From the NCBI RefSeq assembly GCF_004324835.1, contig NW_021163311.1, forward strand, positions 10,208-74,207: DNA of 64,000 nt, read 5' to 3'. The notes under the pieces were generated by a model. The model saw nothing but the letters and a program-made list of their open reading frames with translations. It did not search any database and was not told where the DNA came from. Position 1 is the first letter of the stretch; each line of letters begins with the position of its first letter. The position numbers and the translations under genes are program-made. Shown piece by piece: positions 2,958 to 39,971 of this stretch. This DNA is from Dendronephthya gigantea (taxonomy: Eukaryota).

Positions 2958-4598
2958 ATGGCTTCATATATACAAGGCTATGATGAAGAAAGGTTTGTGG
3001 ACAAAATCAATCAAAATTTTCATTGCCAGATTTGCTTTAATGTCTTGAAAGAGCCGGTTATGTGTTCGAGAAACCAGCATTCGTTTTGCCGTTGTTGTAT
3101 TACGAAACATCTGGAAAATTCTCAAACATGTCCAACGTGTGCTGATGAACTGACCGCAGAGACTTTATCCGAACCGAATAGAATGGTTAAAGATTTTTTG
3201 AATGAATCAAAAATTCGTTGCGTTTACATCGACAGAGGTTGTCAAGAAGTTGTAGAATTACAGCATCTTGACCGCCATGAAGATACATGTGGATATACAC
3301 CAGCCGTTTGTACAAACCAAGGCTGTGGTTTAATTGTCAACAAGCGTGATCTTATTCACCATGAAAGTGAAGTCTGTGAATTCCGAAAGTTGAAGTGTCA
3401 CTCGTGCCGAGAAATGACGAAAACTTTCGCAGATATGGAGGAAAGAATGGCGAATATCGAGAAGAATATGGTAACAAATAAAACAGTTGAAACTAAAATA
3501 ACCAATTTGGAGAAAAATATTGCCACTGTTGCGAATAATATGGAGAAAAACACCGCAGATATAAAAGTAGATATGGAAGGAAAACACGAAGCGGTTAACA
3601 ACAAAGTCGATGGATTGAAAACAGCTTTGGTCAGAGCTTTTGATGATATGAAGGACGTTCTTATCACGATGGAGGGCAAGAAAGTAGAAAACACAAGAAA
3701 AGTAATAAATAGACCAAGTGGTGATAAGGAAAATATAATTGTTGCTGGAGGTTTATTGACTAGCTCTGTAGAGATGTTTAACTGGCGTCAAAGAACATGG
3801 TCGCCATTACAATCAATGCCAAAGAAACGTTTGGTAGCAACTTCATTTATTTATAACAATCATATGACTATAGCTGGGGGTTGCTGTGGTGGGTCTGTCA
3901 TTGTTGATGATATGATTAGAATGAATATTGACCCAAACCTTGATCTCACAACACACTGGAGTGACTGTCCTGTTAAACTACCTGATAAGTTGGAATACCA
4001 CAGCAGTGTGCTGTATAATGATCAGTTGATAGTCTCTGGAGGTCGTAATAAAAATGTTTCATCTGACTTGATGAGAGCAGTCCAGCTTGTTCCTTTCTAT
4101 ACTGTGAAGACCTTATCAAGAATGCCAGAACCTAGACAAGGTCACAGCATGGAAATATTTGATGATAATTTGTTGATAGTTGGTGGAAGTACAACTGACA
4201 ATTACAAAGACAGCCTCAGCAGTGTCGTACTGTACGATATAAAGAAGAATCAGCTGAAACAGTTGTCACCACTGCCGTATGAAGTGAGGCACATGGCAAC
4301 TGTAAGATGGGGAGAAAACATTGTTGTTATTGGTGGCGTTGACAAACATGGCAAGGCATTAGATACAGTTATCATTTACAATGTCAAGACAGAACAAAGT
4401 CACATGCTGCCATCAATGAGATGTAAGAGGTGTGGATGTACTGCAGTTGTTATTGCAAACAACATTGTAGTCCTGGGAGGGAACGGTGAGCGAACAACAC
4501 TGAAGTCAGTTGAAGGTTTCAACTTTGAAAGGTATTCTTGGGAAGAACTTCCAGAAATGTCTGAAGCAAGATACTTGCACACTGCTGTTGTTGCGTGA
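2958..4598 (+). CDS. RING(C3HC4) - TRAF-type zinc finger - coiled coil - 6x Kelch protein, copy 1 (546 aa, intronless)
   Basis: Uninterrupted ATG-to-stop ORF. RING: CQICFNVL..C.RNQHSFCRCCITKHL..CPTC. TRAF-type zinc fingers: CVYIDRGC..HLDRHEDTC, CTNQGCG..HHESEVC. Coiled coil is K/E-rich with heptads. Six Kelch blades carry GG doublets: IIVAGG, MTIAGG, LIVSGG, LLIVGG, IVVIGG, IVVLGG. Confidence 0.9.
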   Translation: MASYIQGYDEERFVDKINQNFHCQICFNVLKEPVMCSRNQHSFCRCCITKHLENSQTCPTCADELTAETLSEPNRMVKDFLNESKIRCVYIDRGCQEVVELQHLDRHEDTCGYTPAVCTNQGCGLIVNKRDLIHHESEVCEFRKLKCHSCREMTKTFADMEERMANIEKNMVTNKTVETKITNLEKNIATVANNMEKNTADIKVDMEGKHEAVNNKVDGLKTALVRAFDDMKDVLITMEGKKVENTRKVINRPSGDKENIIVAGGLLTSSVEMFNWRQRTWSPLQSMPKKRLVATSFIYNNHMTIAGGCCGGSVIVDDMIRMNIDPNLDLTTHWSDCPVKLPDKLEYHSSVLYNDQLIVSGGRNKNVSSDLMRAVQLVPFYTVKTLSRMPEPRQGHSMEIFDDNLLIVGGSTTDNYKDSLSSVVLYDIKKNQLKQLSPLPYEVRHMATVRWGENIVVIGGVDKHGKALDTVIIYNVKTEQSHMLPSMRCKRCGCTAVVIANNIVVLGGNGERTTLKSVEGFNFERYSWEELPEMSEARYLHTAVVA

Positions 4599-8545: not shown

Positions 8546-10156
8546 ATGGCTTCATATATACAAGGCTACGATGAAGAAAGGTTTGTGAACCAAATCGATC
8601 GAAATTTTCATTGTCAGATTTGCTTCAACGTCTTGAAAGAGCCGGTTATGTGTTCCAGAAACCAACATTCTTTTTGCCGTTGTTGTATTACGAAACATCT
8701 GGAAAATTCTCAAACATGCCCAACGTGTGCTGATGAACTGACCGTAGAGACTTTGGCCGAAGCACCGCGAATGGTTAAAGATTTTTTGAATGAATCCAAA
8801 ATTCGTTGCGTTTACATCGACAGAGGTTGTCAAGAAGTTGTAGAATTACAGCATCTTGACCGCCATGAAGATACATGTGGATATACACCAGCCGTTTGTA
8901 CAAACCAAGGCTGTGGTTTAATTGTCAACAAGCGTGATCTTATTCACCATGAAAGTGAAGTCTGTGAATTCCGAAAGTTGAAGTGTCACTCGTGCGGAGA
9001 AATGACCAAAACTTTGGCAGATATGGAGGAAAGAATGGCGAATATCGACAAGAATAATGTAACGATTGAAACTAAAATCACAAATTTAGAGAGAAACGTT
9101 GAAAAAAACACGGCAGATATAAAAGCAGATATGGAAGGAAAACTCGAAGCGGTTAAAAACGAAGTCAAAGGATTGAAAACAGCTTTGGTCAGAGCTTTTG
9201 ATGAAATGAAGGACGTTCTCATCACGATGGACGGCAAGAAAGAAGAAAACACAAGAAAAGTAAGAAATAGACCAAGTGGTGATAAGGAAAATATAATTGT
9301 TGCTGGAGGTCATTGGACTAACTCTGTAGAGATGTTTAACTGGCGTCAAAGAACATGGTCGCCATTACAATCAATGCCAAACTATCGTCATGGAGCAACT
9401 TCATTTATTTATAACAATCATATGACTATAGCTGGGGGTTGGTGTGATTTGTCTGACATTGTTGATGATATGATTAGAATGAATATTGACCCAAACCCTG
9501 ATCTCTCAACACACTGGAGTGACTGTCCTGTTAAACTACCTCATAAGTTGAGATACCACAGCAGTGTGCTGTATAATGATCAGTTGATAGTCTTTGGAGG
9601 TGAAAAGAGAAATGTTTCATATGACCTGATCAGAGCAGTCCAGCTTGTTCCTCCCTATACTGTGAAGACCTTATCAAGAATGCCAGAACCAAGGCATGGT
9701 CACAGCATGGAATTATTTGATGATAATTTGTTGATAGTTGGTGGAACTACAACTGGTTATAACAAAGACAACCTGAGCAGTGTCACACTGTACAATATTA
9801 AGAAGAATGAGTTGAAACAGTTGTCACCACTGCCGTATGAAGTGAATCACATGGCAACTGTGAGATGGGGAGACAACATTGTTGTTATTGGTGGTGATGA
9901 CAAACATGGCAACAGATTAGATACAGTTATCATTTACAATGTCAAGACAGAACAAAGTCACATCCTGCCATCAATGAGATGTAAGAGGTTTGGATGTACT
10001 GCAGTTGTTATTGAAAACAACATTGTAGTCCTGGGAGGGTGTGGTCAATTTTTCCCCCTGAAGTCAGTTGAAGGTTTCAACTTTGAAAGGTATTCTTGGG
10101 AAGAACTTCCAGAAATGTCTGAAGCAAGATACTTGCACACTGCTGTTGTTGTGTGA
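8546..10156 (+). CDS. RING-TRAF-Kelch protein, copy 2 (536 aa)
   Basis: Intact ORF with the same domain order as copy 1. It differs mainly in the Kelch loop patches and has a short coiled-coil indel. Confidence 0.9.
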   Translation: MASYIQGYDEERFVNQIDRNFHCQICFNVLKEPVMCSRNQHSFCRCCITKHLENSQTCPTCADELTVETLAEAPRMVKDFLNESKIRCVYIDRGCQEVVELQHLDRHEDTCGYTPAVCTNQGCGLIVNKRDLIHHESEVCEFRKLKCHSCGEMTKTLADMEERMANIDKNNVTIETKITNLERNVEKNTADIKADMEGKLEAVKNEVKGLKTALVRAFDEMKDVLITMDGKKEENTRKVRNRPSGDKENIIVAGGHWTNSVEMFNWRQRTWSPLQSMPNYRHGATSFIYNNHMTIAGGWCDLSDIVDDMIRMNIDPNPDLSTHWSDCPVKLPHKLRYHSSVLYNDQLIVFGGEKRNVSYDLIRAVQLVPPYTVKTLSRMPEPRHGHSMELFDDNLLIVGGTTTGYNKDNLSSVTLYNIKKNELKQLSPLPYEVNHMATVRWGDNIVVIGGDDKHGNRLDTVIIYNVKTEQSHILPSMRCKRFGCTAVVIENNIVVLGGCGQFFPLKSVEGFNFERYSWEELPEMSEARYLHTAVVV

Positions 10157-11129: not shown

Positions 11130-12065
11130 TTGGCAAGATAGGGCAAGATAGAAGAAAACACAAGAAAAGTAAGAAATAGACCAAGTGGTGATAAGGAAAA
11201 TATAATTGTTGCTGGAGGTTTAGGAATTAACTCTGTAGAGATGTTTAACTGGCGTCAAAGAACATGGTCGCCATTACAATCAATGCCAAAGGATCGTGAA
11301 GGAGCGACTTCATTTATTTATAACAATCATATGACTATAGCTGGGGGTGACTGTGGTGGGTCTGACATTGTTGATGATATGATTAGAATGAATATTGACC
11401 CAAACCCTGATCTCTCAACACACTGGAGTGGCTGTCCTGTTAAACTACCTGATAAGTTGAGATTCCACAGCAGTGTGCTGTATAATGATCAGTTGATAGT
11501 CTCTGGAGGTGAAAAGAGAAAAGTTTCATCTGACTTGATCAGAGCAGTCCAGCTTGTTCCTCCCTATACTGCGAAGACCTTATCAAGAATGCCAGAACCA
11601 AGACAAGGTCACAGCATGGAAATATTTGATGATAATTTGTTGATAGTTGGTGGAAAAACAACTGACACTCTCAAAGACAACCTCAGCAGTGTCGTACTGT
11701 ATGATGTAAAGAAGAATGAGCTGAAACAGTTGTCACCACTCCCGTATGAAGTGAGTCACATGGCAACTGTGAGATGGGGAGACAACATTGTTGTTATTGG
11801 TGGAATTGACAAACAATGCAAGACATTAGATACAGTTGTCATTTACAATGTCAAGACAGAACAAAGTCACATGCTGCCATCAATGAGATTTAAGAGGTGG
11901 GGATGTACTGCAGTTGTTATTGAAAACAACATTGTAGTCCTGGGAGGGTATGGTGAGGTAGGAAAGCTGAAGTCAGTTGAAGGTTTCAACTTTGAAAGGT
12001 TATCTTGGGAAGAACTTCCAGAAATGTCTAAATCAAGATGGTGGCCCACTGCTGTTGCTGTGTGA
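11130..12065 (+). pseudogene. 5'-truncated RING-TRAF-Kelch copy 3 (Kelch half only)
   Basis: Homology begins mid-gene at ..gaagaaaacacaagaaaagtaagaaatagaccaagtggtgataaggaaaat.., which encodes ..EENTRKVRNRPSGDKENIIVAGG. The spacer hairpin sequence ..gccactattggcaag is fused directly to the gene at the shared ggcaag (microhomology deletion). The RING and TRAF parts are absent. Confidence 0.8.
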
Positions 12066-12334: not shown

Positions 12335-12540
12335 CTGCACCCCCTCCACCTAGGTTTTTCACCACCACCCCCTTCCTCCTAGGTTTTTCACCCCCTCCCT
12401 CCCACAGTTTTTTTCACACCCCTCCTATCACCTAGGTTTGCACTCCCCCCTCCCACCTAGGTTTTCTCAGCCACAACCCCTCCCCTCCCCACCTGGGTTC
12501 TTCTGCCCCAGTTCCCCAGACCAAGAATCTTAACTGAGCC
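12335..12540. repeat. C-rich 3'-flank tandem repeat (longer version)
   Basis: ccctccacctaggtttttcac-type units. Confidence 0.6.
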
Positions 12541-12756
12541 TCTGCCTCAAGAAATAGCTCAGTTACCTATTTTAAATATCAGCCTGTCTGTAAATGATGT
12601 CTGTGTCTGTCAGACTGCCACAAACCAAGTCATATTTTAAAATTTAACAATTAACAAGATTTGGAGAGATAGTTTTACTCTTTATTAAAACAAAACCCTG
12701 ATTAACTAATATAAATTGGTTTGTCAAATAAAATAAAATTCTTGTTTCAAGTTTGC

Positions 12757-13012
12757 TCACAGATTGTTTTGTAATTTCACGTTTTCCATCGCGTCCTTGA
12801 AGGCTTTTAGTACAAGATTTACATTATCTTTTGTACTGTTCAACCCCATCAAACCAACACGTCATATCTGAAACATTTCACCACAAAAAGTAAGGCTTTT
12901 CACCGGGAAAAATTTACGATTATAGAGCGAATATCTGCGAATATGGAGAAGAAAATTGTGAATATGGATACCTTTCAAGCAGATCTTCCAAGACCACCTG
13001 AATTATCCATTT
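12757..13012 (-). pseudogene. AGXT: AGXT exon 9-10 derived fragment, copy B (nonsense mutation)
   Basis: The exon-10-like segment reads cag|ATA TGA CGT. TGG has become TGA within IWRVGL. Confidence 0.55.
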
Positions 13013-13069
13013 TATGTCTGAAAAAGAAATTCATTATTCAATTTTAAGACTCTCCCTCTTTATTGGACC

Positions 13070-13270
13070 TCTATGAATCACCCCCCTGCAAGTCTTTAAA
13101 ATGGTGCTGTTGGCAGGGGGGGACTTATTCCCAAGATTCATCACATAGCAAGTACCGTAAATGGAAAGATTCACCCCCCCTGCCCATATTGAAAAATTAA
13201 TCTACTGGCAGGGGGGTGATTGCCTCCATTTACAGTACTTGCTGAGTGACGGAACCACTTATGGAAAAAA
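13070..13270. repeat. Nested palindromic foldback module (~45-bp inverted arms plus a short GC hairpin)
   Basis: cccccctgcaagtc..ggcagggggg forms the short hairpin. catcacatagcaagtaccgtaaatgga..tcaccccccctgcc pairs with ggcaggggggtgattgcctccatttacagtacttgctgagtga. Confidence 0.7.
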
Positions 13271-13389
13271 CTATGGAGTTGTTCTTCTGATAGGTATTCT
13301 GCGCCTACACTTTCTTTTATTTTTATTGTATTTTTATCTTTACTTGAAAGCACGACAAGAAATTACCATTTAGACCTAACCCGGGGGGT

Positions 13390-13900
13390 GACGGGAGTCA
13401 ATGACCAAATTCATTACTCATTCTTTTTCGAGAAATGCATTATAGTTTAAAATTTAGTGTAGCCGAATTCATATTAGAGGCGGGAAACTCGTCTTACAAG
13501 GTCAAGGAAAACAGGAAACTCGTCTTACAGGGGAAACTCCTCTTGGAAACTCATCTTAAACGGGAAACTCGTCTGATGTGAATCAGGCCACAGACGGGTT
13601 TCTCGTCAGAATTTTCCCGCCTGACTTTCCCGTCTAAACAAACGGTTAATTTGAACGGGAATCCCTTCTGGACGAGAAACTTGTATTAAATTCGCATTTA
13701 GACGGATAAATCAGACGAGTTTCTGAAATATCAACACGGTCAAGGATCGAACAAGGGTAAAGCCCGCCGCACAAGAGAGCTATCAGCTGCACTAACGACC
13801 TCGAGGCGAATTCCTCACGAAAAACTATCCGCACACGAGAGTAACTTGCTGAGCTAACAGCCTCGCTTTACCTCAGCTACCAGCTCTCGTGTGAGGCGCG
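13390..13900. repeat. Cluster of short direct and inverted GAAACTCGTCT-type repeats plus a ~52-bp tandem (aactatccgcacacga..) with hairpins; resembles transposon subterminal repeats
   Basis: The reads are ggaaactcgtcttaca, ggaaactcgtcttacag, gaaactcctcttgg, gaaactcatcttaaacgg, gaaactcgtctgatg, and inverted cagacgggtttctcgtcag and cagacgagtttctg. Hairpins are ctgagctaac..gttaactcag. The copy number of the 52-bp unit varies between spacers (1-3). Confidence 0.6.
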
Positions 13901-14177
13901 CTTAACTTAGAAAATAAACAAAACTATTATCGTAATAATCACGATACCCTTTTTAGCATTACCCGACCCATCACACGTGTAAATTTTATATCCATTTCAA
14001 GTCATATTAAGACGAGTTTTTACAATCAACTTTCCTGTCTAAGATGAATTTTTCGTGCCTAATATGAATTTGGTTATTAATGTGAGAGAGATGATACCTT
14101 CGGCTTCTCCGCTTCCTTGAATATACAATCCATTGTTATATGGTTTGTTGTTGTTTGAATAAGAACGTGATTTTCGT

Positions 14178-14605
14178 CAGATCTTCGCAGCAAATGGTGT
14201 CAAGACAGAATTCCCTGGTTTGCAAATTATGTCGACGCCATTGTGTGTACGAGAACCTCTGTATAATGATAAATTCACGTTAATTTAATTGTTTTGTAAG
14301 ATTATAAGAATATTATCGATTCGCTGTCTTGCTACAAGCTTACATCTGGTCTTACCTTGGTGTTCCGAAATCACCACAACCCTGACTGTCACATTCACGG
14401 ATTAAATTTCTACCATTTGAGCTGCAAAGCTGACCAAGTTTAAAACATTCAACCGTATTATCTAGAAAAATAAATACAGAAAAATACGATGAAGAATAAC
14501 GAAGTGATACTTGAGAATTCTACGAACAAAGATATATATCACAATATGTATTCCAGTACCTTCAAAGACTAGGAATATAACAACGATCTTAACAACTCCA
14601 AAAAT
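14178..14605 (-). pseudogene. Small secreted Cys-rich 3-exon gene E, inactivated copy (start codon lost)
   Basis: Exons 2 (14356-14461) and 3 (~14178-14259) are conserved. The exon-1 ATG is mutated (aaagatttttggag versus aaagatgtttggag in the other copies). Confidence 0.45.
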
Positions 14606-14904
14606 CTTTGATCTGCTAAAATTTAATCTTCTAGCTTGAAATGGCTTTTCATCGATATAATGACCGCACTTATACAGGATGTTTAAAAAAACACAACACT
14701 TAATATTTATGAATATTTTGATACGCTATACGATCTTTTGTGATCAAAACGAAAGTGAATTTCATAAACACTTTGAAGTGGCGTTTTTCTTATTCACCAC
14801 AGCTGTAGATCAATCCACAAGATATCCTGAACCATTTGTGTGTTGATGAAAACTCATTTAGATTGGAATATTATTGCACCGCGAAAATATTCAACTCGAC
14901 TTAG

Positions 14905-15040
14905 ACAAAGTAAAATACTAAAGTAGGTCACATCTGGGTGCATTGCAAGCTAATGGGTTAACAAGAGACACTGACAGATAGTTTTGTTAACTTATTAACT
15001 GACAGTACTCTTCCACTGATGAGTAAAATCATCTGACACG
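14905..15040. repeat. 136-bp satellite monomer abutting the gene-4 promoter
   Basis: ..gacagatagttttgttaacttattaactgacagtactcttccactgatgagtaaaatcatctgacacgattaggaaaa joined directly to tacaaactatttcttgg. Confidence 0.7.
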
Positions 15041-15304
15041 ATTAGGAAAATACAAACTATTTCTTGGTATAAAGTATCTTTTTCTTCGAACTTATTTCCA
15101 TATAATGAAATAAGAAATTCCTTCCAACATAAACACAACCAATTGCAAGTCAGCATTTGAATAGAAGATGCTGAGCTTTTGTCAGGAGACAATAATAATA
15201 ATATAATTTTTTTATATCACGAATTCCTGTCCACAAAACACTCCTTAAACACTTACGGAAGAGATATTTCTCTGCTGTTCTAAACAGATAATTTTGCCGT
15301 AACG

Positions 15305-15443
15305 ATTTGAGAAAATACAAACACAGACTTCTTCAAGAACGAACACTGTATGTATATTCAGTCTATACAGCGAGGTTTATACTACAGAGCGACAAACAAC
15401 ACAGAACTTGCTTTATTATTACGACATAAGAACGACGTGAAAT
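15305..15443 (+). promoter_or_regulatory. Conserved leader of gene 4, type-B upstream
   Basis: Same proximal ~135 bp. The upstream region is type B (cacgaattcctgtccacaaaacactccttaaacacttacggaagagatatttctctgctg..) and the type-A segment is missing. Confidence 0.5.
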
Positions 15444-17074
15444 ATGGCTTCATATATACAAGGCTACGATGAAGAACGCTTCGAGACCAAAGTCAGTAAA
15501 AATTTCCTTTGTCAGATTTGCTTCAACGTCTTGAAAGAGCCTGTCCTGTGTCCGACAAACCAACATTGTTTTTGCCGTTGTTGTATTACGAAACATCTGG
15601 AAAATTCTCAAACATGTCCAACGTGTGCTGATGAACTGACCGTAGAGACTTTGGGCGAACCCCAAAGAATTGTAAAAGATCTTATAAACGAGTTAAAAAT
15701 TCGTTGCGTTTACATCGACAGAGGTTGTCAAGAGTTGTGGAATTACAGCATCTTGACCGCCATGAAGATACATGTGGATACACACCAGCCGTTTGTACAA
15801 ACCAAGGCTGTGGTTTAATTGTCAACAAGCGTGATCTTATTCACCATGAAAGTGAAGTCTGTGAATTCCGAAAGTTGAAGTGTCACTCGTGCGGAGAAAT
15901 GACGAAAACTTTGGCAGATATGGAGGAAAAAATGGCGAAGAATAATGTAAATATTGAAACTAAAATAACAAATTTAGAGAAAAACGTTGCTACTTTTGCG
16001 AATGATATGGAGAAAAACACCGCAGATATAAAAGCAGATATAAAAGCAGATATGGAAGGAAAACTCGAAGCGGTTAACAACGAAGTCAAAGGATTGAAAA
16101 CAGCTTTGGTCAAAGCTTTTGATGAAATGAAGGACGTTCTTATCACGATGGAGGGCAAGAAAGAAGAAAACACAAGAAAAGTAAGAAATAGACCAAGTGG
16201 TGATAAGGAAAATATAATTGTTGCTGGAGATGTAGCAACTAACTCTGTAGAGATATTTAACTGGCGCCAAAGAACATGGTCGCCATTACAATCAATGCCA
16301 GAGGATCGTTATGGAGCAACTTCATTTACTTATAACAATCATATGACTATAGCTGGGGGTGGCTGTGGTTGGCCTGGCATTGTTGATGATATAATTAGAA
16401 TGAATATTGACCCAAACCCTGATCTCTCAACACACTGGAGTGACTGTCCTGTTAAACTACCTGATAAGTTGAGATACCACAGCAGTGTGCTGTATAATGA
16501 TGAGTTGATACTCTCTGGAGGTGATAATGGAAATGTTTCATCTGACTTGATCAGATCAGTCCAGCTTGTTCCTCCCTATACTGTGAAGACCTTATCAAGA
16601 ATGCCAGAACCGAGACAAGGTCACAGCATGGAAATATTTGATGATAATTTGTTGACAGTTGGTGGAAGTAAAACTGACAGTTACACAGACAACCTCAGCA
16701 GTGTCGTACTGTACGATATAAAGAAGAATGAGCTAAAACAGTTGTCACCACTGCCGTATGAAGTGAGTGCTATGGCAACTGTGAGATGGGGAGACAACCT
16801 TGTTGTTATTGGTGGCGTTGACAAACATGGCAAGACATTAGATACAGTTATCATTTACAATGTCAAGACAAAACAAAGTCACATGCTGCCATCAATGAGA
16901 TGTAAGAGGAGAGGATGCACTGCAGTTGTTATTGAAAACAACATTGTAGTCCTGGGAGGATCTGGTGCAGGAGAACTGAAGTCAGTTGAAGGTTTCAACT
17001 TTGAAAGGTATTCTTGGGAAAAACTTCCAGAAATGTCTAAAGCAAGATGGCGGCACACTGCTGTTGTTGTGTGA
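15444..17074 (+). pseudogene. RING-TRAF-Kelch copy 4, disrupted by a 1-nt deletion (true pseudogene or homopolymer assembly error)
   Basis: caagagttgtggaattacagc here against caagaggttgtggaattacagc in gene 5. The ORF splits into 15444-15818 and 15704-17074. The 5' flank and N-terminal half are otherwise identical to gene 5. Confidence 0.6.
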
Positions 17075-17339
17075 ACAATATGTAAGGTATTAAGTGAAAA
17101 CTCCTAACATATTATGAACAATTGAAATGAACTATAAGATTTTCACAAAGTTATAGAAATAGATTGCAGCATTCTAAGTTGATTGTCAGACATATACTGA
17201 TTTGTATTTTTGTGTTTGAATTTAAATTGTGTCAGTTCTTAGGATTATATATTAAAGAACAATAACAAATCTTTGAAATAGATTTTTTTATTGAGGAAGG
17301 TTTATAATGAAACACAAAATAAAAAATTTGAAATAAGCT

Positions 17340-17470
17340 TTTCTGCACCCCCTCCACCTAGGTTTTTTCACTCCCTCCCTCCCACAGGTTTTTTCACCCC
17401 CCCCAACTAGGTTTTTCAACCACCCAACCTCACCCCTTTCTACCTGGGTTCTTCTTCCCCGGGCCCCCAG
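17340..17470. repeat. C-rich 3'-flank tandem repeat
   Basis: ccctccacctaggttttttcac units. Confidence 0.6.
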
Positions 17471-17707
17471 ACCAAGAATCCTAACTGAGCCTCTGGCTCA
17501 AGAAATAGCTCAGTTACCTATTTTAAATATCAGCCTGTCTGTAAATGATGTTTGTGTCTGTCAGACTGCCACAGACCAAGTCATATTTTAAAATTTAACA
17601 ATTAACAAGATTTGAAGAGATAGTTTTACTCTTTATTAAAACAAAACCATGATTAACTAATATAAATTGGTTTGTCAAATAAAATAAAATTCTTGTTTCA
17701 AGTTTGC

Positions 17708-17968
17708 TCACAGATTGTTTTGTAATTTCACGTTTTCCATGGCATCCTTGAAGGCTTTTAGTACAAGATTTACATTATCTTTTGTACTGTTCAACCCCAT
17801 CAGACCAACACGCCATATCTGAAAAATTTCACCACAAAAAGTAGGTTTTTCAAGGGAAAAAATTTACGATTATGGAGTGAATATCTGCGAATATGAGAAG
17901 AAAATTGTGAATATGATACCTTTCCAGCAGATTTCCAAGACCACCTGAAATATCCATTTTATATCTGA
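17708..17968 (-). pseudogene. AGXT: AGXT exon 9-10 derived fragment, copy C (frameshift in the exon-9-like part)
   Basis: cagcagatttccaagacc against cagcagatcttccaagacc in the real exon 9. The exon-10-like part is intact. Confidence 0.55.
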
Positions 17969-18004
17969 AAAAGAAATTGATTATTCAATTTTAACACTCT
18001 CTAT

Positions 18005-18170
18005 GAATGACCCCCTGCAAGTAAAAATGCCACTATTGGCAGGGGGTACTTCCCAAGATTTATCACTTAGAAAGTACGTAAATGGAGATACCCCCCTGCC
18101 CATATTAAAAATAACTGTTCGAGGGGGGTGATTGCCTCCATTTACCGTACTTCCTGAGTGACGTGAACCA
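18005..18170. repeat. Palindromic foldback module (copy)
   Basis: cacttagaaagtacgtaaatggag .. ctccatttaccgtacttcctgagtg. Confidence 0.7.
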
Positions 18171-18329
18171 CTTATGCAAAAAACTATGGAGTTGTTCTTC
18201 TGATAGGTATTCTGTGCCTACACTTTCTTTTATTTTTATTGTATTTTTATCTTTACTTGAAAGCACGACATGAAATTACCATTTAGACCTAACCCGGGGG
18301 GTGACGGGAGTCAATGACCAAATTCATTA

Positions 18330-18870
18330 CTCATTTTGTTTCGAGAAATGCATTATAGTTTAAAATTTAGTTTAGCCGAATTCATATTAGAGGCGGGAAA
18401 CTCGTCTTACAAGGTCAAGGAAAACAGGAAACTCGTCTTACAGGGGAAACTCCTCTTGGAAACTCATCTTAGACGGGAAACTCGTCTGATGTGAATCAGG
18501 CCACAGACGGGTTTCTCGTCAGAATTTTCCCGCCTAACTTTCCCGTCTAAACAAACGGTTAATTCCTTCTGGACGAGAATCTCGTCTTAAATTCACATTT
18601 AGACGGATAAATCAGACGAGTTTCTGAAATATCAACACGGTCAAGGACGGAACAAGGGTAAAGCCCGCCGCACAAGAGAGCTATCAGCTGAGCTAACGAT
18701 CTCGCGAGGCAGTTAACTCAGCCTGAAAACTATCCGCACACGATAGAAACTTGCCTCTCGAGGCGAATTCCTCACGAAAAACTATCCGCACACGAGAGTA
18801 ACTTGCTGAGCTAACAGCCTCGCGAGGTCTTTAACTCAGCTAGCAGCTCTCGTGTGAGGCGGGTTTATTT
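18330..18870. repeat. GAAACTCGTCT short-repeat cluster plus 52-bp tandem (3 copies here)
   Basis: Same module as 13390-13900, with two extra aactatccgcacacga units. Confidence 0.6.
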
Positions 18871-19138
18871 GAGAAAATAAACAAATTTTTATCGTAACAA
18901 TCACGATACCCTTTTTAACATTACCCGACCCATCACACGTGTAAATTTTATATCCATTCCAACTCATATTAAGACGGGTTTTTCACAATCAACTTTCTGT
19001 CTAAGATGAATTTGCCGTGCCTAATATGAATTTGGTTATTAATGCGAGAGAGATGATACCCTCATCTTCTTCGCTTCCTTGAATATACAATCCATTGTTA
19101 TATGGTTTGTTGTTTTTTGAATAAGGACGTGATTTTCG

Positions 19139-19568
19139 TCAGATCTTCGAAGCAAATGGTGTCATGACAGAACTCCCTGGTTTGCAAATTATGTCGACAC
19201 CATTGTCTGTACGAGAGCCTCTGTATAATGATAAATTCACGTTAATTTACTTGTTTTTGTAAGATTATAAGAATATTATCGATTCGTTGTGTTGCTACAA
19301 GGTTACATCTGGTCTTACCTTGGTGTTCCGAAATCACCACAACCCTGACTGTCACATTCACGGATTAAATTTCTACCATTTGAGCTGCAAAGCTGACCAA
19401 GTTTAAAACATTCAACCGCATTATCTAGAAAAATAAATCCAGAAAAATACGATGAAGAATAACGAAGTGATACTTGAGAATTCTATGAACAAAGATATAT
19501 ATCACAATATGTATTCCAGTACCTGCAAAGACTAGGAATATAACAACGATCTTAACAACTCCAAACAT
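19139..19568 (-). CDS. Gene E: small secreted Cys-rich protein (~77 aa), 3 exons
   Basis: Exons 19523-19568, 19319-19424 and 19139-19221. MFGVVKIVVIFLVFA(G) signal ends at |GTACTG. A 98-nt intron ends ttctag. Then DNAVECFKLGQLCSSNGRNLIRECDSQGCGDFGTPR|GTAAGA. A 97-nt intron ends tacag, followed by RGSRTDNGVDIICKPGSSVMTPFASKI*. Confidence 0.5.
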
Positions 19569-19867
19569 CTTTGATCTGCTAAAATTTAATCTTCTAGCTT
19601 GAAATGGCTTTTCATCGATATAATGACCGCACTTATACAGGATGTTTAAAAAAACACAACACTTAATATTTATGAATATTTTGATACGCTATACGATCTT
19701 TTGTGATCAAAACGAAAGTGAATTTCACGAACACTTTGAAGTTGCGTTTTTCTTATTCACCACAGCTGTAGATCAATCCACAAGATATCCTGAAACATTT
19801 GTGTGTTGATGAAAACTCATTTAGATTGGAATATTATTGCACCGCGAAAATATTCAACTTGACTTAG

Positions 19868-20003
19868 ACAAAGTAAAATACTAAAGTAGGTCACATCTGG
19901 GTGCATTGCAAGCTAATGGGTTAACAAGAGACACTGACAGATAGTTTTGTTAACTTATTAACTGACAGTACTCTTCCACTGATGAGTAAAATCATCTGAC
20001 ACG
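19868..20003. repeat. 136-bp satellite monomer upstream of gene 5
   Basis: As at 14905-15040. Confidence 0.7.
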
Positions 20004-20266
20004 ATTAGGAAAATACAAACTATTTCTTGGTATAAAGTATCTTTTTCTTCGAACTTATTTCCATATAATGAAATAAGAAATTCCTTCCAACATAAACACA
20101 ACCAATTGCAAGTCAGCATTTGAATAGAAGATGCTGAGCTTTTGTCAGGAGACAATAATAATAATATAATTTTTTTATATCACGAATTCCTGTCCACAAA
20201 ACACTCCTTAAACACTTACGGAAGAGATATTTCTCTGCTGTTCTAAACAGATAATTTTGCCGTAAC

Positions 20267-20405
20267 GATTTGAGAAAATACAAACACAGACTTCTTCAAG
20301 AACGAACACTGTATGTATTTCAGTCTATACAGCGAGGTTTATACTACAGAGCGACAAACAACACAGAACTTGCTTTATTATTCCGACATAAGAACGACGT
20401 GAAAT
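20267..20405 (+). promoter_or_regulatory. Conserved leader of gene 5 (type B)
   Basis: Identical to the gene-4 upstream. Confidence 0.5.
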
Positions 20406-22040
20406 ATGGCTTCATATATACAAGGCTACGATGAAGAACGCTTCGAGACCAAAGTCAGTAAAAATTTCCTTTGTCAGATTTGCTTCAACGTCTTGAAAGA
20501 GCCTGTCCTGTGTCCGACAAACCAACATTGTTTTTGCCGTTGTTGTATTACGAAACATCTGGAAAATTCTCAAACATGTCCAACGTGTGCTGATGAACTG
20601 ACCGTAGAGACTTTGGGCGAACCCCAAAGAATTGTAAAAGATCTTATAAACGAGTTAAAAATTCGTTGCGTTTACATCGACAGAGGTTGTCAAGAGGTTG
20701 TGGAATTACAGCATCTTGACCGCCATGAAGATACATGTGGATACACACCAGCCGTTTGTACAAACCAAGGCTGTGGTTTAATTGTCAACAAGCGTGATCT
20801 TATTCACCATGAAAGTGAAGTCTGTGAATTCCGAAAGTTGAAGTGTCACTCGTGCGGAGAAATGACGAAAACTTTGGCAGATATGGAGGAAAAAATGGCG
20901 AAGAATAATGTAAATATTGAAACTAAAATAACAAATTTAGAGAAAAACGTTGCTACTTTTGCGAATGATATGGAGAAAAACACCGCAGATATAAAAGCAG
21001 ATATAAAAGCAGATATGGAAGGAAAACTCGAAGCGGTTAACAACGAAGTCAAAGGATTGAAAACAGCTTTGGTCAAAGCTTTTGATGAAATGAAGGACGT
21101 TCTTATCACGATGGAGGGCAAGAAAGAAGAAAACACAAGAAAAGTAAGAAATAGACCAAGTGGTGATAAGGAAAATATAATTGTTGCTGGAGATGTAGCA
21201 ACTAACTCTGTAGAGATATTTAACTGGCGCCAAAGAACATGGTCGCCATTACAATCAATGCCAGAGGATCGTTATGGAGCAACTTCATTTACTTATAACA
21301 ATCATATGACTATAGCTGGGGGTTGGTGTGGTGTGTCTGTCATTGCTGATGATATGATTAGAATGAATATTGACCCAAACCCTGATCTCTCAACACACTG
21401 GAGTGACTGTCCTGTTAAACTACCTGATAAATTAATATTCCACAGCAGTGTGCTGTATAATGATCAGTTGATAGTCTCTGGAGGTGATAATGGAAATGGT
21501 TTATCTGACTTGATCAGATCAGTCCAGCTTGTTCCTCCCTATACTGTGAAGACCTTAACAAGAATGCCAGAACCAAGACAAGGTCACAGCATGGAAATAT
21601 TTGATGATAATTTGGTGATAGTTGGTGGAAGTACAATTAGCAGTTACAAAGGCAACCTCAGCAGTGTCGTACTGTACGATATAAAGAAGAATGAGCTGAG
21701 ACAGTTGTCACCACTGCCGTATGAGGTGAGTCTCATGGCAACTGTGAGATGGGGAGACAACATTGTTGTTATTGGTGGCTTTGACAAATATGGCAAATTA
21801 CTAGATACAGTTATCATTTACAATGTCAAGACAGGACAAAGTCACATGCTGCCATCAATGAGATGTAAGAGGAGGGGATGTACTGCAGTTGTTATTGAAA
21901 ACAACATTGTAGTCCTGGGAGGGGAGAGTGAGCAAGCAATGCTAACATCAGTTGAAGGTTTCAACTTTGAAAGGTATTCTTGGGAAGAACTTCCAGAAAT
22001 GTCTGAAGCAAGATTGTGGCACACTGCTGTTGTTGTGTGA
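20406..22040 (+). CDS. RING-TRAF-Kelch protein, copy 5 (544 aa)
   Basis: Intact ORF. Codons 1 to ~300 are identical to copy 4. The Kelch half has diverged. Confidence 0.9.
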   Translation: MASYIQGYDEERFETKVSKNFLCQICFNVLKEPVLCPTNQHCFCRCCITKHLENSQTCPTCADELTVETLGEPQRIVKDLINELKIRCVYIDRGCQEVVELQHLDRHEDTCGYTPAVCTNQGCGLIVNKRDLIHHESEVCEFRKLKCHSCGEMTKTLADMEEKMAKNNVNIETKITNLEKNVATFANDMEKNTADIKADIKADMEGKLEAVNNEVKGLKTALVKAFDEMKDVLITMEGKKEENTRKVRNRPSGDKENIIVAGDVATNSVEIFNWRQRTWSPLQSMPEDRYGATSFTYNNHMTIAGGWCGVSVIADDMIRMNIDPNPDLSTHWSDCPVKLPDKLIFHSSVLYNDQLIVSGGDNGNGLSDLIRSVQLVPPYTVKTLTRMPEPRQGHSMEIFDDNLVIVGGSTISSYKGNLSSVVLYDIKKNELRQLSPLPYEVSLMATVRWGDNIVVIGGFDKYGKLLDTVIIYNVKTGQSHMLPSMRCKRRGCTAVVIENNIVVLGGESEQAMLTSVEGFNFERYSWEELPEMSEARLWHTAVVV

Positions 22041-22779: not shown

Positions 22780-23320
22780 GAAGGAAGTACAATCATCAAA
22801 TTGATTACTAATGGTAGTTTATATACAATTAAATTGACTTTTGCAAAATACAATGACATTTTCGTGCAAATAAAACCAAATACGGTAGAAATAACTACAA
22901 AACCATGGTCCATTTTACCAATACAACAACTATTATTACAAATAGTCTTTTGGAATTACGATTAAACCATTCTTATAAAGTTGTAAATGCAAATGCTGTG
23001 TTATTCCTGAGTAAGGAATTTCCTACGATTTTCCTAACACTGAACCTTCATCAGCGAAGCCTGAAGACTTCGAAGGCGTGAAATAAAATATCTTTGCACT
23101 AAAACCTATAAAAAATGAATGAAGTTAATTACTCTAGTGCAATACACGGGTCTACGAGGTTGTTCTCAAGTCATGCAACGATGAACCTTCCATATTTCAT
23201 TTTAATATTTATGGCTTTATTGTTGAAGATAATGAAAGCGAAAGAGAGAAATTGTTTACAAGTGAAATAGTCAGATTGTCTTTTAAATTGCCGTGGAAAA
23301 CTGATTTTGTTTCGAGAAAT
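22780..23320. other. Copy-specific ~530-bp insertion or replacement unique to spacer 5-6
   Basis: Other spacers read ccatttagacctaacccggggggtgacgggagtcaatgaccaaattcattactcatt..gtttcgagaaatgc. Here ~530 unrelated bp intervene. No clear TIR is visible. Confidence 0.4.
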
Positions 23321-23830
23321 ACATTATAGTTTAAAATTTACTTTAGCCGAATTCATATTAGAGGCGGGAAACTCGTCTTACAAGGTCAAGAAAAACAGGA
23401 AACTCGTTTCACAGGGGAAACTCCTCTTGGAAACTCATCTTAGACGGGAAACTCGTCTGATGTGAATCAGGCTACAGACGGGTTTCTCGTCAGAATTTTT
23501 CCGCCTAACTTTCCCGTCTAAACAAACGGTTAATTTGAACGGGAATCCCTTCTGGACGAGAAACTCGTCTTAAATTCGCATTTAGACGAATAAATCAGAC
23601 GAGTTTCTGAAATATCAACACGGTCAAAGACGGAACAAGGGTAAAGCCCGCCGCACAAGAGAGCTATCAGCTGAAAACTATCCGCACACGATAGAAACTT
23701 GCCTCTCGAGGCGAATTCCTCACGAAAAACTATCCGCACACGAGAGTAACTTGCTGAGCTAACAGCCTCGCGAGGTCTTTACCTCAGCTACCAGCTCTCG
23801 TGTGAGGCGCGCTTAACTGAGAAAATAAAC
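23320..23830. repeat. GAAACTCGTCT short-repeat cluster plus 52-bp tandem (2 copies)
   Basis: Same module as 13390-13900. Confidence 0.6.
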
Positions 23831-24087
23831 AAAATTATTATCGTAATAATCACAACACCCTTTTTAGCATTACCCGACCCATCACACGTGTAAATTTCAT
23901 ATCCATTCCAAGTCATATTAAGACGGGTTTTTACAATCAACTTTCCTGTCTAAGATGAATTTCCCGTGCCTAATATGAATTTGGTTATTAATGTGAGAGA
24001 GATGATACCTTCGGCTTCTCCGCTTCCTTGAATATACAATCCATTGTTATATGGTTTGTTGTTGTTTGAATAAGAACGTGATTTTCG

Positions 24088-24515
24088 TCAAATCTTCGCA
24101 GCAAATGGTGTCATGACAGAAATCCCTGGTTTGCAAATTATGTCGACACCATTGTGTGTACGAGAGCCTCTGTATAATGATAAATTCACGTTAATTTAAT
24201 TGTTTTGTAAGATTATAAGAATATTATCGATTCGCTGTGTTGCTACAAGGTTACATCTGGTCTTACCTTGGTGTTCTGAAATCACCACAACCCTGACTGT
24301 CACATTCACGGATTGAATTTCTACCATTTGAGCTGCAAAGCTGACCAAGTTTAAAACATTCAACCGCATTATCTAGAAAAATAAATCCAGAAAAATACGA
24401 TGAAAATAACGAAGTGATACTTGAGAATTCTATGAACAAAGATATATATCACAATATGTATTCCAGTACCTGCAAAGACTAGGAATATAACAATGATCTT
24501 AACAACTCCAAACAT
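24088..24515 (-). CDS. Gene E copy (small secreted Cys-rich protein, 3 exons)
   Basis: Exons 24470-24515, 24267-24372 and 24088-24169. ATG, GT-AG boundaries and frame are conserved with 19139-19568. Confidence 0.5.
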
Positions 24516-24829
24516 CTTTGATTTGCTAAAATTTAATCTTCTAGCTTGAAATGGCTTTTCATCGATATAATGACCGCACTTATACAGGATGTTTAAAAAA
24601 ACGCAACACTTAATATTTATGAATATTTTGATACGCTATACGATCTTTTGTGATCAAAACGAAAGTTAATTTCATAAACACTTTGAAGTTGCGTTTTTCT
24701 TATTCACCACAGCTGTAGATCAATCCACAAGATATCCTAAACCATTTGTGTGTTGATGAAAACTGATTTAGATTGGAATATTATTCCACCGCGAAAATAT
24801 TCAACTTGACTTAGACAGAGTAAAATACT

Positions 24830-25375
24830 AAAGTAGGTCACATCTGTGTGCATTGCAAGCTAATGGGTTAACAAGAGACACTGACAGATAGTTTTGTTAA
24901 CTTATTAACTGACAGTACTCTTCCACTGATGAGTAAAATCATCTGACATTAGACAGAGTAAAATACTAAAGTAGGTCACAACTGGGTGCATTGCAAGCTA
25001 ATGGGTTAACAAGAGACACTGACAGATAGTTTTGTTAACTTATTATCTGACAGTACTCTTCCACTGATGAGTAAAATCATCTGACATTAGACAGAGTAAA
25101 ATACTAAAGTAGGTCACATCTGGGTGCATTGCAAGCTAATGGGTTAACAAGAGACATTGACAGATAGTTTTGTTAACTTATTAACTGACAGTACTCTTCC
25201 ACTGATGAGTAAATTCATCTGACATTAGACAGAGTAAAATACTAAAGTAGGCCACATCTGGGTGCATTGCAAGCTAATGGGTTAACAAGAGACACTGACA
25301 GATAGTTTTGTTAACTTATTAACTGACAGTACTCTTCCACTGATGAGTAAAATCATCTGACACGATTAGGAAAAA
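24830..25375. repeat. 136-bp satellite, 4 tandem monomers, upstream of gene 6
   Basis: Unit is gacagatagttttgttaacttattaactgacagtactcttccactgatgagtaaaatcatctgacattagacagagtaaaatactaaagtaggtcacatctgggtgcattgcaagctaatgggttaacaagagacact. Confidence 0.85.
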
Positions 25376-25745: not shown

Positions 25746-27380
25746 ATGGCTTCATATATACAAGGCTACGATGAAGAACGCTTCGAGGCCAAAGTCAGTA
25801 AAAATTTCCTTTGTCAGATTTGCTTCAATGTCTTGAAAGAGCCTGTCCTGTGTCGGAAGAACCAACATTGTTTTTGCCGTTGTTGTATTACGAAACATAT
25901 GGAAAATTCTCAAACATGTCCAACGTGTGCTGATGAACTGACCGTAGAGACTTTGACAGAACCAAATAGAATGGTAAAAGATCTTATAAATGAGTTAAAA
26001 ATTCGTTGCGTTTACATCGACAGAGGTTGTCAAGAAGTTGTAGAATTACAGCATCTTGACCGCCATGAAGATACATGTGGATATACACCAGCCGTTTGTA
26101 CAAACCAAGGCTGTGGTTTAATTGTCAACAAGCGTGATCTTATTCGCCATGAAAGTGAAGTCTGTGAATTCCGAAAGTTGAAGTGTCACTCGTGCCGAAA
26201 AATGACGAAAACTTTCGCAGATATCGAGGAAAGAATGGCGAATATCGAGAAGAATATGGTAACAAATAAAACAGTTGACACTAAAATAAAAAATTTAGAG
26301 AAAAATGTTGCCACTGTTGCGAATAATATCGAGAAAAACACGGCAGATATAAAAGCAAATATGGAAGGAAAACACGAAGCGGTTAACAACGAAGTCAGAG
26401 GATTGAAAACAGCTTTGGTCAGAGCTTTTGATGAAATTAAGGACGTTCTTATCACGATGGAGGGCAAGAAAGAAGAAAACACAAGAAAAGTAATAAATAG
26501 ACCAAGTGGTGATAAGGAAAATATAATTGTTGCTGGAGGTGTAGTAACTAACTCTGTAGAGATGTTTAACTGGCGTCAAAGAACATGGTCGCCATTACAA
26601 TCAATGCCAGATCATCGTTGTGGAGCGACTTCATTTATTTACAACAATCATATGACTATAGCTGGGGGTGACCGTGGTAGGCCTGACATTGTTATGACTA
26701 GAATGAATATTGACCCATACCCTGATCTCTCAACACACTGGAGCGACTGTCCTGCTAAACTACCTGAAAAGTTGAGATACCACAGCAGTGTGCTGTATAA
26801 TGATCAGTTGATAGTCTCTGGATGTGCTAATGCAAATTATTCACGTGACTTGATCAAAGCAGTCCAGCTTGTTCCTCCCTATACTGTGAAGACCTTATCA
26901 AGAATGCCAGAACCAAGACAATGTCACAGCATGGAAATATTTGATGATAATTTGTTGATAGTTGGTGGAAGAGCAACTGGGTTTTACAAAGACAACCTCA
27001 GCAGTGTCGTACTGTACGATATAAAGAAGAATGAGCTGAAACAGTTGTCACCACTGCCGTATGAAGTGAGTCAAATGGTAACTGTGAGATGGGGAGACAA
27101 CATTGTTGTTATTGGTGGCCTTGACAAACATTGCAAGTTATTAGATACAGTTATCATTTACAATGTCAAGACAGAACAAAGTCACATGCTGCCATCAATG
27201 AGATGTAAGAGGCAGGGATGTACTGCAGTTGTTATTAAAAACAACATTGTAGTCCTGGGAGGGTGGGGTGAGGAAGGAAAGCTGAAGTCAGTTGAAGGTT
27301 TCAACTTTGAAAGGTATTCTTGGGAAGAACTTCCAGAAATGTCTGAAGTGAGATGGCTGTCCACTGCTGTTGTTGTGTGA
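25746..27380 (+). CDS. RING-TRAF-Kelch protein, copy 6 (544 aa)
   Basis: Intact ORF with the same domains and distinctive loop variants (DRGRPDIVMT, CANANYSRD, RATGFYKDN). Confidence 0.9.
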   Translation: MASYIQGYDEERFEAKVSKNFLCQICFNVLKEPVLCRKNQHCFCRCCITKHMENSQTCPTCADELTVETLTEPNRMVKDLINELKIRCVYIDRGCQEVVELQHLDRHEDTCGYTPAVCTNQGCGLIVNKRDLIRHESEVCEFRKLKCHSCRKMTKTFADIEERMANIEKNMVTNKTVDTKIKNLEKNVATVANNIEKNTADIKANMEGKHEAVNNEVRGLKTALVRAFDEIKDVLITMEGKKEENTRKVINRPSGDKENIIVAGGVVTNSVEMFNWRQRTWSPLQSMPDHRCGATSFIYNNHMTIAGGDRGRPDIVMTRMNIDPYPDLSTHWSDCPAKLPEKLRYHSSVLYNDQLIVSGCANANYSRDLIKAVQLVPPYTVKTLSRMPEPRQCHSMEIFDDNLLIVGGRATGFYKDNLSSVVLYDIKKNELKQLSPLPYEVSQMVTVRWGDNIVVIGGLDKHCKLLDTVIIYNVKTEQSHMLPSMRCKRQGCTAVVIKNNIVVLGGWGEEGKLKSVEGFNFERYSWEELPEMSEVRWLSTAVVV

Positions 27381-28444: not shown

Positions 28445-28464
28445 AATGACCAAATCATTACTCA

Positions 28465-30843: not shown

Positions 30844-32442
30844 ATGGCTTCATATATACAAGGCTACGATGAAGAAAGGTTTTTGGACAAAATCAATCAA
30901 AATTTCCTCTGTCAGATTTGCTTCAACGTCTTGAAAGAGCCGGTTATGTGTTCGAGAAACCAGCATTCTTTTTGCCGTTGTTGTATTACGAAACATCTGG
31001 AAAATTCCAAAACATGTCCAACGTGTGCTGATGAACTTACCGTAGAGACTTTGGCCGAACCACAAAGAATGATAAAAGATTATTTGAATGAATCGAAAAT
31101 TCGTTGCGTTTACATCGACAGAGGTTGTCAAGAAGTTGTAGAATTACAGCATCTTGACCGCCATGAAGATACATGTGGATATACACCAGCCGTTTGTACA
31201 AACCAAGGCTGTGGTTTAATTGTCAACAAGCGTGATCTTATTCATCATGAAAGTGAAGTCTGTGAATTCCGAAAGTTGAAGTGTCACTCGTGCGGAGAAA
31301 TAACCAAAACTTTGGCAGATATGGAGGAAAGAATGGCGAAGAATAACACAACAATTGAAACTAAAATAACAAATTTAGAGAAAAATATGGCGAGAAATAC
31401 CATAGTCGCAGATTTAAAAGCAGATATGGAAGGAAAACTCGAAGCGGTTAACAACAAAGTCGATGGATTGAAAACAGCATTGGTCAGAGCTTTTGATGAA
31501 ATGAAGGACGTTCTTATCACGATGGAGAGCAAGAAAGAAGAAAACACAAGAAAAGTAAGAAATAGACCAAGTGGTGATAAAGAAAATATAATTGTTGCTG
31601 GAGGTGTAGGAACTAACTCTGTAGAGATGTTTAACTGGCGTCAAAGAACATGGTCGCCATTACAATCAATGCCAAAGAGTCGTTATGGAGCGACTTCATT
31701 TATTCATAACAATCATATGACTATAGCTGGGGGTTGGTGTGTTGGGCCTGGCATTGTTGATGATATGATTAGAATGAATATTGACCCAAACCCTGATCTC
31801 TCAACACACTGGAGTGACTGTCCTGTTAAACTACCTGATAAGTTGAGCAGTGTGCTGTATAATGATCAGTTGATAGTCTCTGGAGGTAATAATGGAAATG
31901 ATTCATCTGACTTGATCAGAGCAGTCCAGCTTGTTCCTCCCTATACTGTGAAGACCTTATCAAGAATGCCAGAACCAAGACAAGGTCACAGCATGGAAAT
32001 ATTTGATGATAATTTGTTGATAGTTGGTGGAAGAACAACTGGTAATTACAAAGACAACCTCAGCAGTGTCGTATTGTACGATATAAAGAAGAATGAGCTG
32101 AAACAGTTGTCACCACTGCCCTATGAAGTGGGTGATATGGCAACTGTGAGATGGGGAGACAACATTGTTGTTATTGGTGGTGCTGACAAACGCGGCAAGC
32201 CATTAGATACAGTTATCATTTACAATGTCAAGACAGAACAAAGTCACATGCTGCCATCAATGAGATGTAAGAGGAGGGGATGTACTGCAGTTGTTATTGA
32301 AAACAACATTGTAGTCCTGGGAGGGAAGGGTGAGGGAAGAAAGCTGAAGTCAGTTGAAGGTTTCAACTTTGAAAGGTATTCTTGGGAAGAACTTCCAGAA
32401 ATGTCTGAAGCAAGATGGTGGCCCACTGCTGTTGTTGTGTGA
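30844..32442 (+). CDS. RING-TRAF-Kelch protein, copy 7 (532 aa)
   Basis: Intact ORF. It has a 3-aa in-frame deletion (DKL--SSVLYND) and distinct loop variants. Confidence 0.9.
   Translation: MASYIQGYDEERFLDKINQNFLCQICFNVLKEPVMCSRNQHSFCRCCITKHLENSKTCPTCADELTVETLAEPQRMIKDYLNESKIRCVYIDRGCQEVVELQHLDRHEDTCGYTPAVCTNQGCGLIVNKRDLIHHESEVCEFRKLKCHSCGEITKTLADMEERMAKNNTTIETKITNLEKNMARNTIVADLKADMEGKLEAVNNKVDGLKTALVRAFDEMKDVLITMESKKEENTRKVRNRPSGDKENIIVAGGVGTNSVEMFNWRQRTWSPLQSMPKSRYGATSFIHNNHMTIAGGWCVGPGIVDDMIRMNIDPNPDLSTHWSDCPVKLPDKLSSVLYNDQLIVSGGNNGNDSSDLIRAVQLVPPYTVKTLSRMPEPRQGHSMEIFDDNLLIVGGRTTGNYKDNLSSVVLYDIKKNELKQLSPLPYEVGDMATVRWGDNIVVIGGADKRGKPLDTVIIYNVKTEQSHMLPSMRCKRRGCTAVVIENNIVVLGGKGEGRKLKSVEGFNFERYSWEELPEMSEARWWPTAVVV

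Positions 32443-33038: not shown

Positions 33039-39971
<6,933 letters not shown>

Follow-up and report, generated by a model that had tools for sequence, protein, structure and literature searches.

Here, we describe a tandem array of seven related genes in a 64,000-nucleotide stretch of the Dendronephthya gigantea contig NW_021163311.1 (hereafter the window), and a near-identical tract shared by two neighbouring members of the array. One intronless gene occurs in seven copies (g1 to g7) at 2.9-32.5 kb, all on the same strand, and the fourth and fifth copies are virtually the same over 1463 bp while diverging clearly on both sides of this tract. We conclude that the tract very probably dates from a single recent event of ectopic gene conversion, in which the partners were two neighbouring paralogues in the same orientation. 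As a phenomenon, such a conversion is ordinary, indeed textbook; its edges are cleanly resolved here, and the event serves as a dated marker that exchange still proceeds in the array. The setting, a hypervariable RING-Kelch family with a TRAF6-like RING and a Kelch propeller, is more interesting than the event itself.

The tract shared by g4 and g5

Units 4 (12066-17074) and 5 (17075-22040) of the array are adjacent direct repeats 4.96 kb apart. In a global alignment of the two, 385 of 5078 columns differ, and these differences are spread very unevenly. The parts of the two units are as follows:

15444..17074, + strand: g4, encoding a RING/TRAF-type zinc-finger region, a coiled coil and a six-bladed Kelch domain; frameshifted
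20406..22040, + strand: g5, encoding an intact RING/TRAF-zinc-finger, coiled-coil, Kelch protein of 544 aa
14898..16360, + strand: copy of the tract in unit 4, made up of 546 bp of upstream/promoter sequence and g4 codons 1-306
19861..21323, + strand: copy of the tract in unit 5, made up of 545 bp of upstream sequence and g5 codons 1-306
16336..16360, + strand: 3' resolution zone, a block of ~25 nt (AATCATATGACTATAGCTGGGGGT) that encodes NHMTIAGG and is identical in units 4-7 in a four-unit alignment
21299..21323, + strand: homologue in g5 of the 25-nt block
16361..16393, + strand: first hypervariable patch 3' of the breakpoint, the BC loop of blade 2, with 8 differences in 33 nt from 21324-21356
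16361..17074, + strand: unconverted 3' part of g4, blades 2b-6, 8.4% diverged from g5
21324..22040, + strand: unconverted 3' part of g5, blades 2b-6

Divergence between g4 and g5 in each segment, in unit 4 coordinates:

Spacer, 12066-14897: 5.26%
Tract, 14898-16360: 0.07%
3' coding part, 16361-17071: 8.44%

Tract and spacer differ in divergence with a Fisher p = 4e-26. Within the tract we found only one substitution (A/C at 15421/20383) and two 1-bp indels, one at 15356 and the other a G missing from unit 4 after 15733. None of the three lies in a long homopolymer. With units 6 and 7 as the reference, the derived state is found in unit 5 for two of them and in unit 4 for the third (the missing G, which causes a frameshift).

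A sequence-only reading of this DNA had claimed that the two copies share a near-identical 5' part followed by a diverged Kelch part, and the alignment agrees. The shared coding stretch, which it had estimated as codons 1 to ~300, ends at codon 306, and the boundary that it had placed at about 16370 and 21340 opens with eight changes in 16361-16393 and 21324-21356, where one protein reads GCGWPG and the other WCGVSV. Uniform divergence along the gene, which it had named as evidence to the contrary, is not seen; instead there is a low-divergence tract with two edges. Two of its claims need correction. The upstream identity had been given as ~1.3 kb, and while this sequence is indeed near-identical, the stretch specific to this pair is only the 546 bp before the ATG, the rest being 96-99% identical in all of units 4-7. 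The 5' end of the tract falls within a generally conserved spacer segment; immediately upstream of it (14300-14897), g4 and g5 are 97-98% identical, matching every other pair in units 4-7. The division into an N-terminal half and a Kelch half was right about the sharpness of the split, but not about its place, since the 3' breakpoint lies at codon 306/307, inside the Kelch domain and after the 'TIAGG' strand of blade 2, leaving blade 1 and half of blade 2 within the identical part. The tract carries two of the twelve propeller loops (the BC loop of blade 1 and the DA loop from blade 1 to blade 2), and the other ten differ between g4 and g5.

We also noticed a 12-bp tandem repeat, GCAGATATAAAA, present in 2.7 copies inside the tract (16022-16053 and 20985-21016), which lengthens the coiled coil by one further ADIK. 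This repeat is confined to g4 and g5.

A probable gene conversion and its alternatives

We looked for breakpoints with a GENECONV-style test on the six full-length coding sequences, which have 264 polymorphic sites without gaps. The g4 and g5 sequences are concordant at 130 consecutive sites, a run that none of 5000 site permutations reached for this pair or for any other (p ≤ 0.0002), and they are the sole globally significant pair among the six copies. Separate phylogenies of the 5' and 3' parts are incongruent; neighbour-joining pairs g4 with g5 in every bootstrap replicate (100%) of the 5' part and in no replicate of the 3' part. Both analyses had been proposed in the sequence-only reading, and both came out in favour of a breakpoint between the two parts.

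Silent sites give a similar picture. Over codons 1-306 there are no synonymous differences between g4 and g5 at 184 synonymous sites, compared to 10 at the 133 sites of the framework in codons 307-544 (synonymous divergence, dS, of 0.079; Fisher 1.4e-4). In all other pairs, dS over codons 1-306 is 0.08-0.17, and the nucleotide difference in the 5' part is 5-9%. Here, framework codons are set against hypervariable codons, which we defined as those with an amino-acid entropy of at least 1.5 bits across 125 aligned family proteins, nearly all of them from other genomes. Between g4 and g5, the framework of codons 307-544 is 4.7% diverged and the hypervariable codons 28.3%. The framework value does not differ from that of the spacer (5.3%, p = 0.61), and we therefore assign g4 and g5 one common older age outside the tract. 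The sequence of this pair falls into three classes: an old duplicate background at ~5%, loop patches with about six-fold higher divergence, and a freshly homogenised tract. Taken as a whole, the Kelch parts of g4 and g5 are 91.6% identical, no higher than other pairs (89-94%).

A two-edged tract that takes in silent and non-coding sites and lies between adjacent direct repeats bears the signature of ectopic gene conversion. Together with the incongruent trees, these features favour the first of the two mechanisms offered in the sequence-only reading, and the length of ~1.5 kb falls in the range usual for conversion tracts. We propose a single, very recent, non-reciprocal exchange, in which ~1.46 kb of one unit would have overwritten the corresponding part of its neighbour. 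The copied sequence would run from the proximal promoter and the 5' untranslated region through the RING, the TRAF-type zinc fingers, the coiled coil and Kelch blade 1 as far as the second strand of blade 2. Break repair by synthesis-dependent strand annealing is the likely route, with the adjacent unit presumably serving as template, whether on the same chromatid, on its sister or on the homologue. The exchange probably began and finished in high-identity sequence, which hardly varies among array members, and extension of the heteroduplex was probably halted by the mismatch density of the loop patch (8/33 nt).

Such an exchange would leave two genes that do not differ in their regulatory and ubiquitin-ligase modules, and that have 2 of their 12 putative binding-face loops in common. 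Each copy would later have gained mutations of its own, among them the single-base deletion behind the frameshift in g4; differences private to each copy of the tract fit a true past event followed by mutation. With one substitution in 1462 aligned bases, against a dS between paralogues of 0.08-0.17, we roughly estimate that the event falls within the last 1% or so of the history of the array. The suggestion that exchange reshuffles Kelch halves between array members is roughly correct to the extent that, in one of the two genes, the gene's own blades 2-6 now appear to follow a promoter/RING/coiled-coil/blade-1 module of foreign origin. Only one such event is involved here, however, and what it mainly does, as far as can be seen, is homogenise the 5' module.

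Several points weigh against gene conversion as the explanation. Donor and recipient cannot be told apart from the present sequences, and the tract is a single instance: we found no long identity tracts between paralogues inside genes among ~15 family genes at six related loci (L001-L006, from Paramuricea clavata GCA_902702795.2, GCA_949826985.1 and ENA ERZ25073802), where paralogue comparison returned short spacer or transposable-element repeats only. The remaining points concern the assembly, since the tract could also come from mis-assigned reads during assembly or polishing, or units 4 and 5 could be two haplotypes falsely laid in tandem. Tandem 5-kb paralogues are difficult to assemble, and both ends of the tract lie in blocks conserved across units, where an assembler could switch paths. 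Moreover, the deletion that breaks the open reading frame (ORF) of g4 could be a consensus error, the g5 protein has no exact match in the public protein collection, and no independent assembly was found. Nevertheless, the window contains no Ns, both copies of the tract are set in unique diverged flanks with many indels, and the tract is imperfect, with derived states in both copies and differences that avoid long homopolymers. In our judgement, ordinary long reads would probably also span a 1.46-kb repeat. We consider an artefact of this kind unlikely.

Unequal crossing-over, the other mechanism named in the sequence-only reading, would have made a hybrid unit with its 5' part from one parent unit and its 3' part from another. 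Signs of unequal or illegitimate recombination are present elsewhere in the array, in the truncated g3 and in unit lengths that vary from 4.96 to 6.9 kb. A single crossover should leave a one-sided boundary, however, whereas the tract has two edges, with a 5.3% diverged spacer (12066-14897) beyond the left one. Nor are the 3' parts identical to those of the neighbours (92.4% for g4 and g3, 90.3% for g5 and g6), and crossing-over seems a very improbable origin for the tract. Could the pattern have arisen with no exchange at all, from a recent duplicate of the whole unit whose 3' part evolved fast under positive selection, or through strong constraint on the 5' part? It is true that 32 of the 60 differences in the 3' part fall within 113 nt of hypervariable loop codons, where the ratio of non-synonymous to synonymous differences (pN/pS) is about 1.8. 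A recent duplicate should not, however, carry ten synonymous differences in the 3' framework and a spacer as diverged as this one. Constraint, for its part, cannot explain the absence of synonymous differences in codons 1-306, because the other pairs do differ there, at silent sites and overall, and because 546 bp of non-coding DNA are included in the tract. We reject selection alone on the synonymous and spacer divergence and regard it as extremely unlikely.

The frameshift in g4 deserves separate mention. Where g5 has GAGG, g4 has GAG, the G being lost after 15733, and this breaks the frame at codon 97 and splits the ORF in two (15444-15818 and 15704-17074). Gene 4 is a RING/Kelch paralogue, but not an intact one. 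As assembled, it cannot make a RING-containing protein, and from its sequence g4 is probably a young pseudogene or a RING-less remnant, with consensus error as another possible source of the frameshift. At one related locus (L006, GCA_949826985.1), family copies at 12979-14664 and 16367-17985 are similarly split into two or more ORFs, as frameshifted or interrupted pseudogenes like g4, making young pseudogenes plausible in the RING-Kelch family.

The encoded protein and its hypervariable loops

The g5 protein matches the Pfam family Kelch_1 with 97.6 bits (cut-off 20.1). Matches to RING/U-box, Sina_ZnF and zf-TRAF are weak, with 22.9 bits against a cut-off of 27 for zf-TRAF, and Sina_ZnF below its own cut-off. 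In a phmmer comparison, residues 4-152 aligned to the RING and zinc fingers of a TRAF6 entry in the PDB with E = 1e-11. The Pfam scan found no BTB, BACK or MATH domains, nor zf-B_box at E ≤ 0.1. An AlphaFold model built with 67 family sequences has a long helix at residues 129-238 with a low predicted local distance difference test score (pLDDT), and six four-stranded blades with a pLDDT of 85-96 over residues 340-544, in which the C-terminal strand closes blade I. Foldseek aligned this propeller with those of KLHL12, KLHL20 and KEAP1 with a target-normalised template modelling (TM) score of 0.89-0.93, a root-mean-square deviation of ~2 Å and about 20% identity. Sequence matches and model together suggest a protein that starts with a TRAF6-like RING/zinc-finger region, continues with a coiled coil and ends in a Kelch propeller of six blades. 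It is not a member of the KLHL, TRAF or TRIM families, though it resembles each in part.

The likeness to the BTB-Kelch proteins (KLHL/KEAP1), which are Cullin-3 adaptors, lies in the six-bladed propeller and its closure by the C-terminal strand, as well as in the loops: the array family is hypervariable at those that form the substrate surface of KLHL20. Unlike these distant relatives (~20% identity), the array protein has no BTB or BACK domain and its propeller is joined directly to a RING, so that it would be a self-contained ubiquitin ligase (E3) rather than a Cullin adaptor. It resembles the TRAF proteins in residues 4-152, which align with the TRAF6 RING and zinc fingers, and in the long predicted helix after them, but the Kelch propeller takes the place of the TRAF-C/MATH domain that defines them. 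A third comparison is with the TRIM-type immune E3s, including TRIM5alpha and fish finTRIM, which have variable B30.2/SPRY loops, and with the expanded MATH-BTB and F-box adaptors of nematodes and plants. Like these, the array protein couples a conserved ligase module and a coiled coil to a variable binding domain, in a setting of large lineage-specific tandem expansions. It differs from TRIM in having neither a B-box nor SPRY, and an immune role, suggested by this analogy, would be conjecture.

The family is large. More than 1595 significant matches were found among the candidates scored in a homology search, the best being 74-76% identical, and of these matches only those of the octocoral Paramuricea clavata carry names ('RING finger 151-like' and 'NRDP1'). 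Many of the matches share contigs, and the related loci that we fetched hold two to five tandem or clustered copies. We did not find a published description of this RING-Kelch family in the searchable literature, although absence there is no proof of novelty.

To locate the variable positions on the propeller, we assigned loops from the strand order of the predicted model. Among the 125 family proteins, the Kelch positions of highest entropy are 264, 288/290, 307-313, 344/345, 361, 393, 409-415, 443, 459-465, 490, 507-512 and 537/538, all of which lie in a BC loop (just after the GG of each blade) or a DA loop. In the solved Kelch domain of KLHL20, these two sets of loops make up the surface that binds the substrate (PMC6720452). 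Mapping of contact residues through alignment to solved KLHL/KEAP1 chains gave partial alignments and was not used. Pooled within the window, pN/pS is 1.8 at hypervariable codons and 0.71 in the framework; these values are at most suggestive, as they come from non-independent pairs, are biased by path-averaging at codons with multiple hits and are affected by recombination. We also observed that, in codons 307-544 of all copies, the pooled proportion of synonymous differences (pS) is 0.18 at hypervariable loop codons, three times that of the framework (0.06). This could reflect an older coalescence of the loop patches, a locally raised mutation rate, or a counting artefact at codons with multiple hits.

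Interlocus gene conversion is known from other tandem families, such as plant NLR clusters, MHC/KIR and primate TRIM5/TRIM22. As in those families, a short tract of near-identity joins neighbouring paralogues amid older divergence, residues of the recognition surface are diverse while the rest is exchanged, and truncated or frameshifted members point to birth-and-death turnover. The array differs in its gene family and host lineage, and in having one clearly recent event.

Perhaps, then, the array is one locus of a very large family of self-contained E3s, whose 12 BC/DA loops would serve as a germline-encoded hypervariable recognition surface, with conversion tracts homogenising the rest and ending at the loop patches. 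We offer this reading tentatively and consider it rather doubtful as a whole. Under it, short-tract conversion would keep evening out differences in promoters, ligase modules, spacers and the propeller framework, and the loop patches would survive as islands of divergence at which conversion tracts naturally end. What happened between g4 and g5 would then be a snapshot of this process, creating a new combination of loops in a manner comparable to TRIM5 or NLR receptors, but on a Kelch scaffold. If the proteins are indeed recognition molecules, the mosaic would show how a repertoire keeps a uniform effector and regulatory module while recombining its binding surfaces.

Older exchange and other features of the window

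The composition of the window is eukaryote-like, with a GC content of about 0.37 and very few long ORFs. The spacers of the array are about 3.3-4 kb each and are in part homologous to one another. Besides g4 and g5, the array has the following members:

2958..4598, + strand: g1
8546..10156, + strand: g2
about 11140..12065, + strand: g3, 5'-truncated
25746..27380, + strand: g6
30844..32442, + strand: g7

In g3, the first ~980 bp of a spacer run straight into the gene, which is entered near codon 237 (junction at about 11135/11140), and an open Kelch-only ORF of 274 aa (11241-12065) is retained. The truncation of g3 and the variable unit lengths are other signs of unequal or illegitimate recombination in the array.

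Older exchanges among the other array copies also show in the data. With g4 removed, a pairwise homoplasy index (PHI)-type test gave p = 0.0005 for the coding sequence taken whole, with p values of 0.002 and 0.0075 for its 5' and Kelch parts, respectively, and 58% of informative site pairs in the Kelch part fail the four-gamete test. In the spacers, the segment 13400-14900 and its homologues (18320-19860, 23300-24800 and 28445-30000) are 96-99% identical among units 4-7, and are thus more conserved than both the coding sequence (89-95%) and the synonymous sites (dS 0.04-0.17). This segment is either regularly homogenised or constrained; we found no ORF or RNA family in it in units 4-7. The spacers of units 5 and 7, 10 kb apart, also share an exact match of 287 bp (19368-19654 and 29510-29796), which hints at another recent short exchange. 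Together, the PHI result, the conserved spacer segment and the 287-bp match point to recurrent homogenisation outside the loop patches.

Two minisatellites accompany the array. One, upstream of g6 (24807-25362), consists of four copies of a 138-bp unit and has a single-copy homologue that begins close to where the tract shared by g4 and g5 has its left edge. The other follows the array (33361-33731), with 3.3 copies of a 114-bp unit, and was matched in translated form by two of the related loci, L001 (ENA ERZ25073802) and L004 (Paramuricea clavata). In L004, glutamate synthase exons (1-1900 and 18250-21650) flank three family genes, which are apparently nested in an intron, and in L001, the matching ENA locus, such exons were seen on the upstream side only (1-2400). 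We considered whether the window is orthologous to this Paramuricea glutamate synthase locus and rejected the idea, since the window has no glutamate synthase and only shared repeats match.

A scan of the whole window against Rfam gave no matches, and Pfam gave no significant family for an ORF at 62.2-62.8 kb or for the ORFs of a second, unrelated tandem array. This second array (42100-60470) consists of about 4.5 units of ~4.15-4.2 kb with ~95% identity. It has no long ORFs, but contains several short ones that open with hydrophobic segments resembling signal peptides, for example at 50780-51199 on the + strand and 49422-49865 on the - strand.

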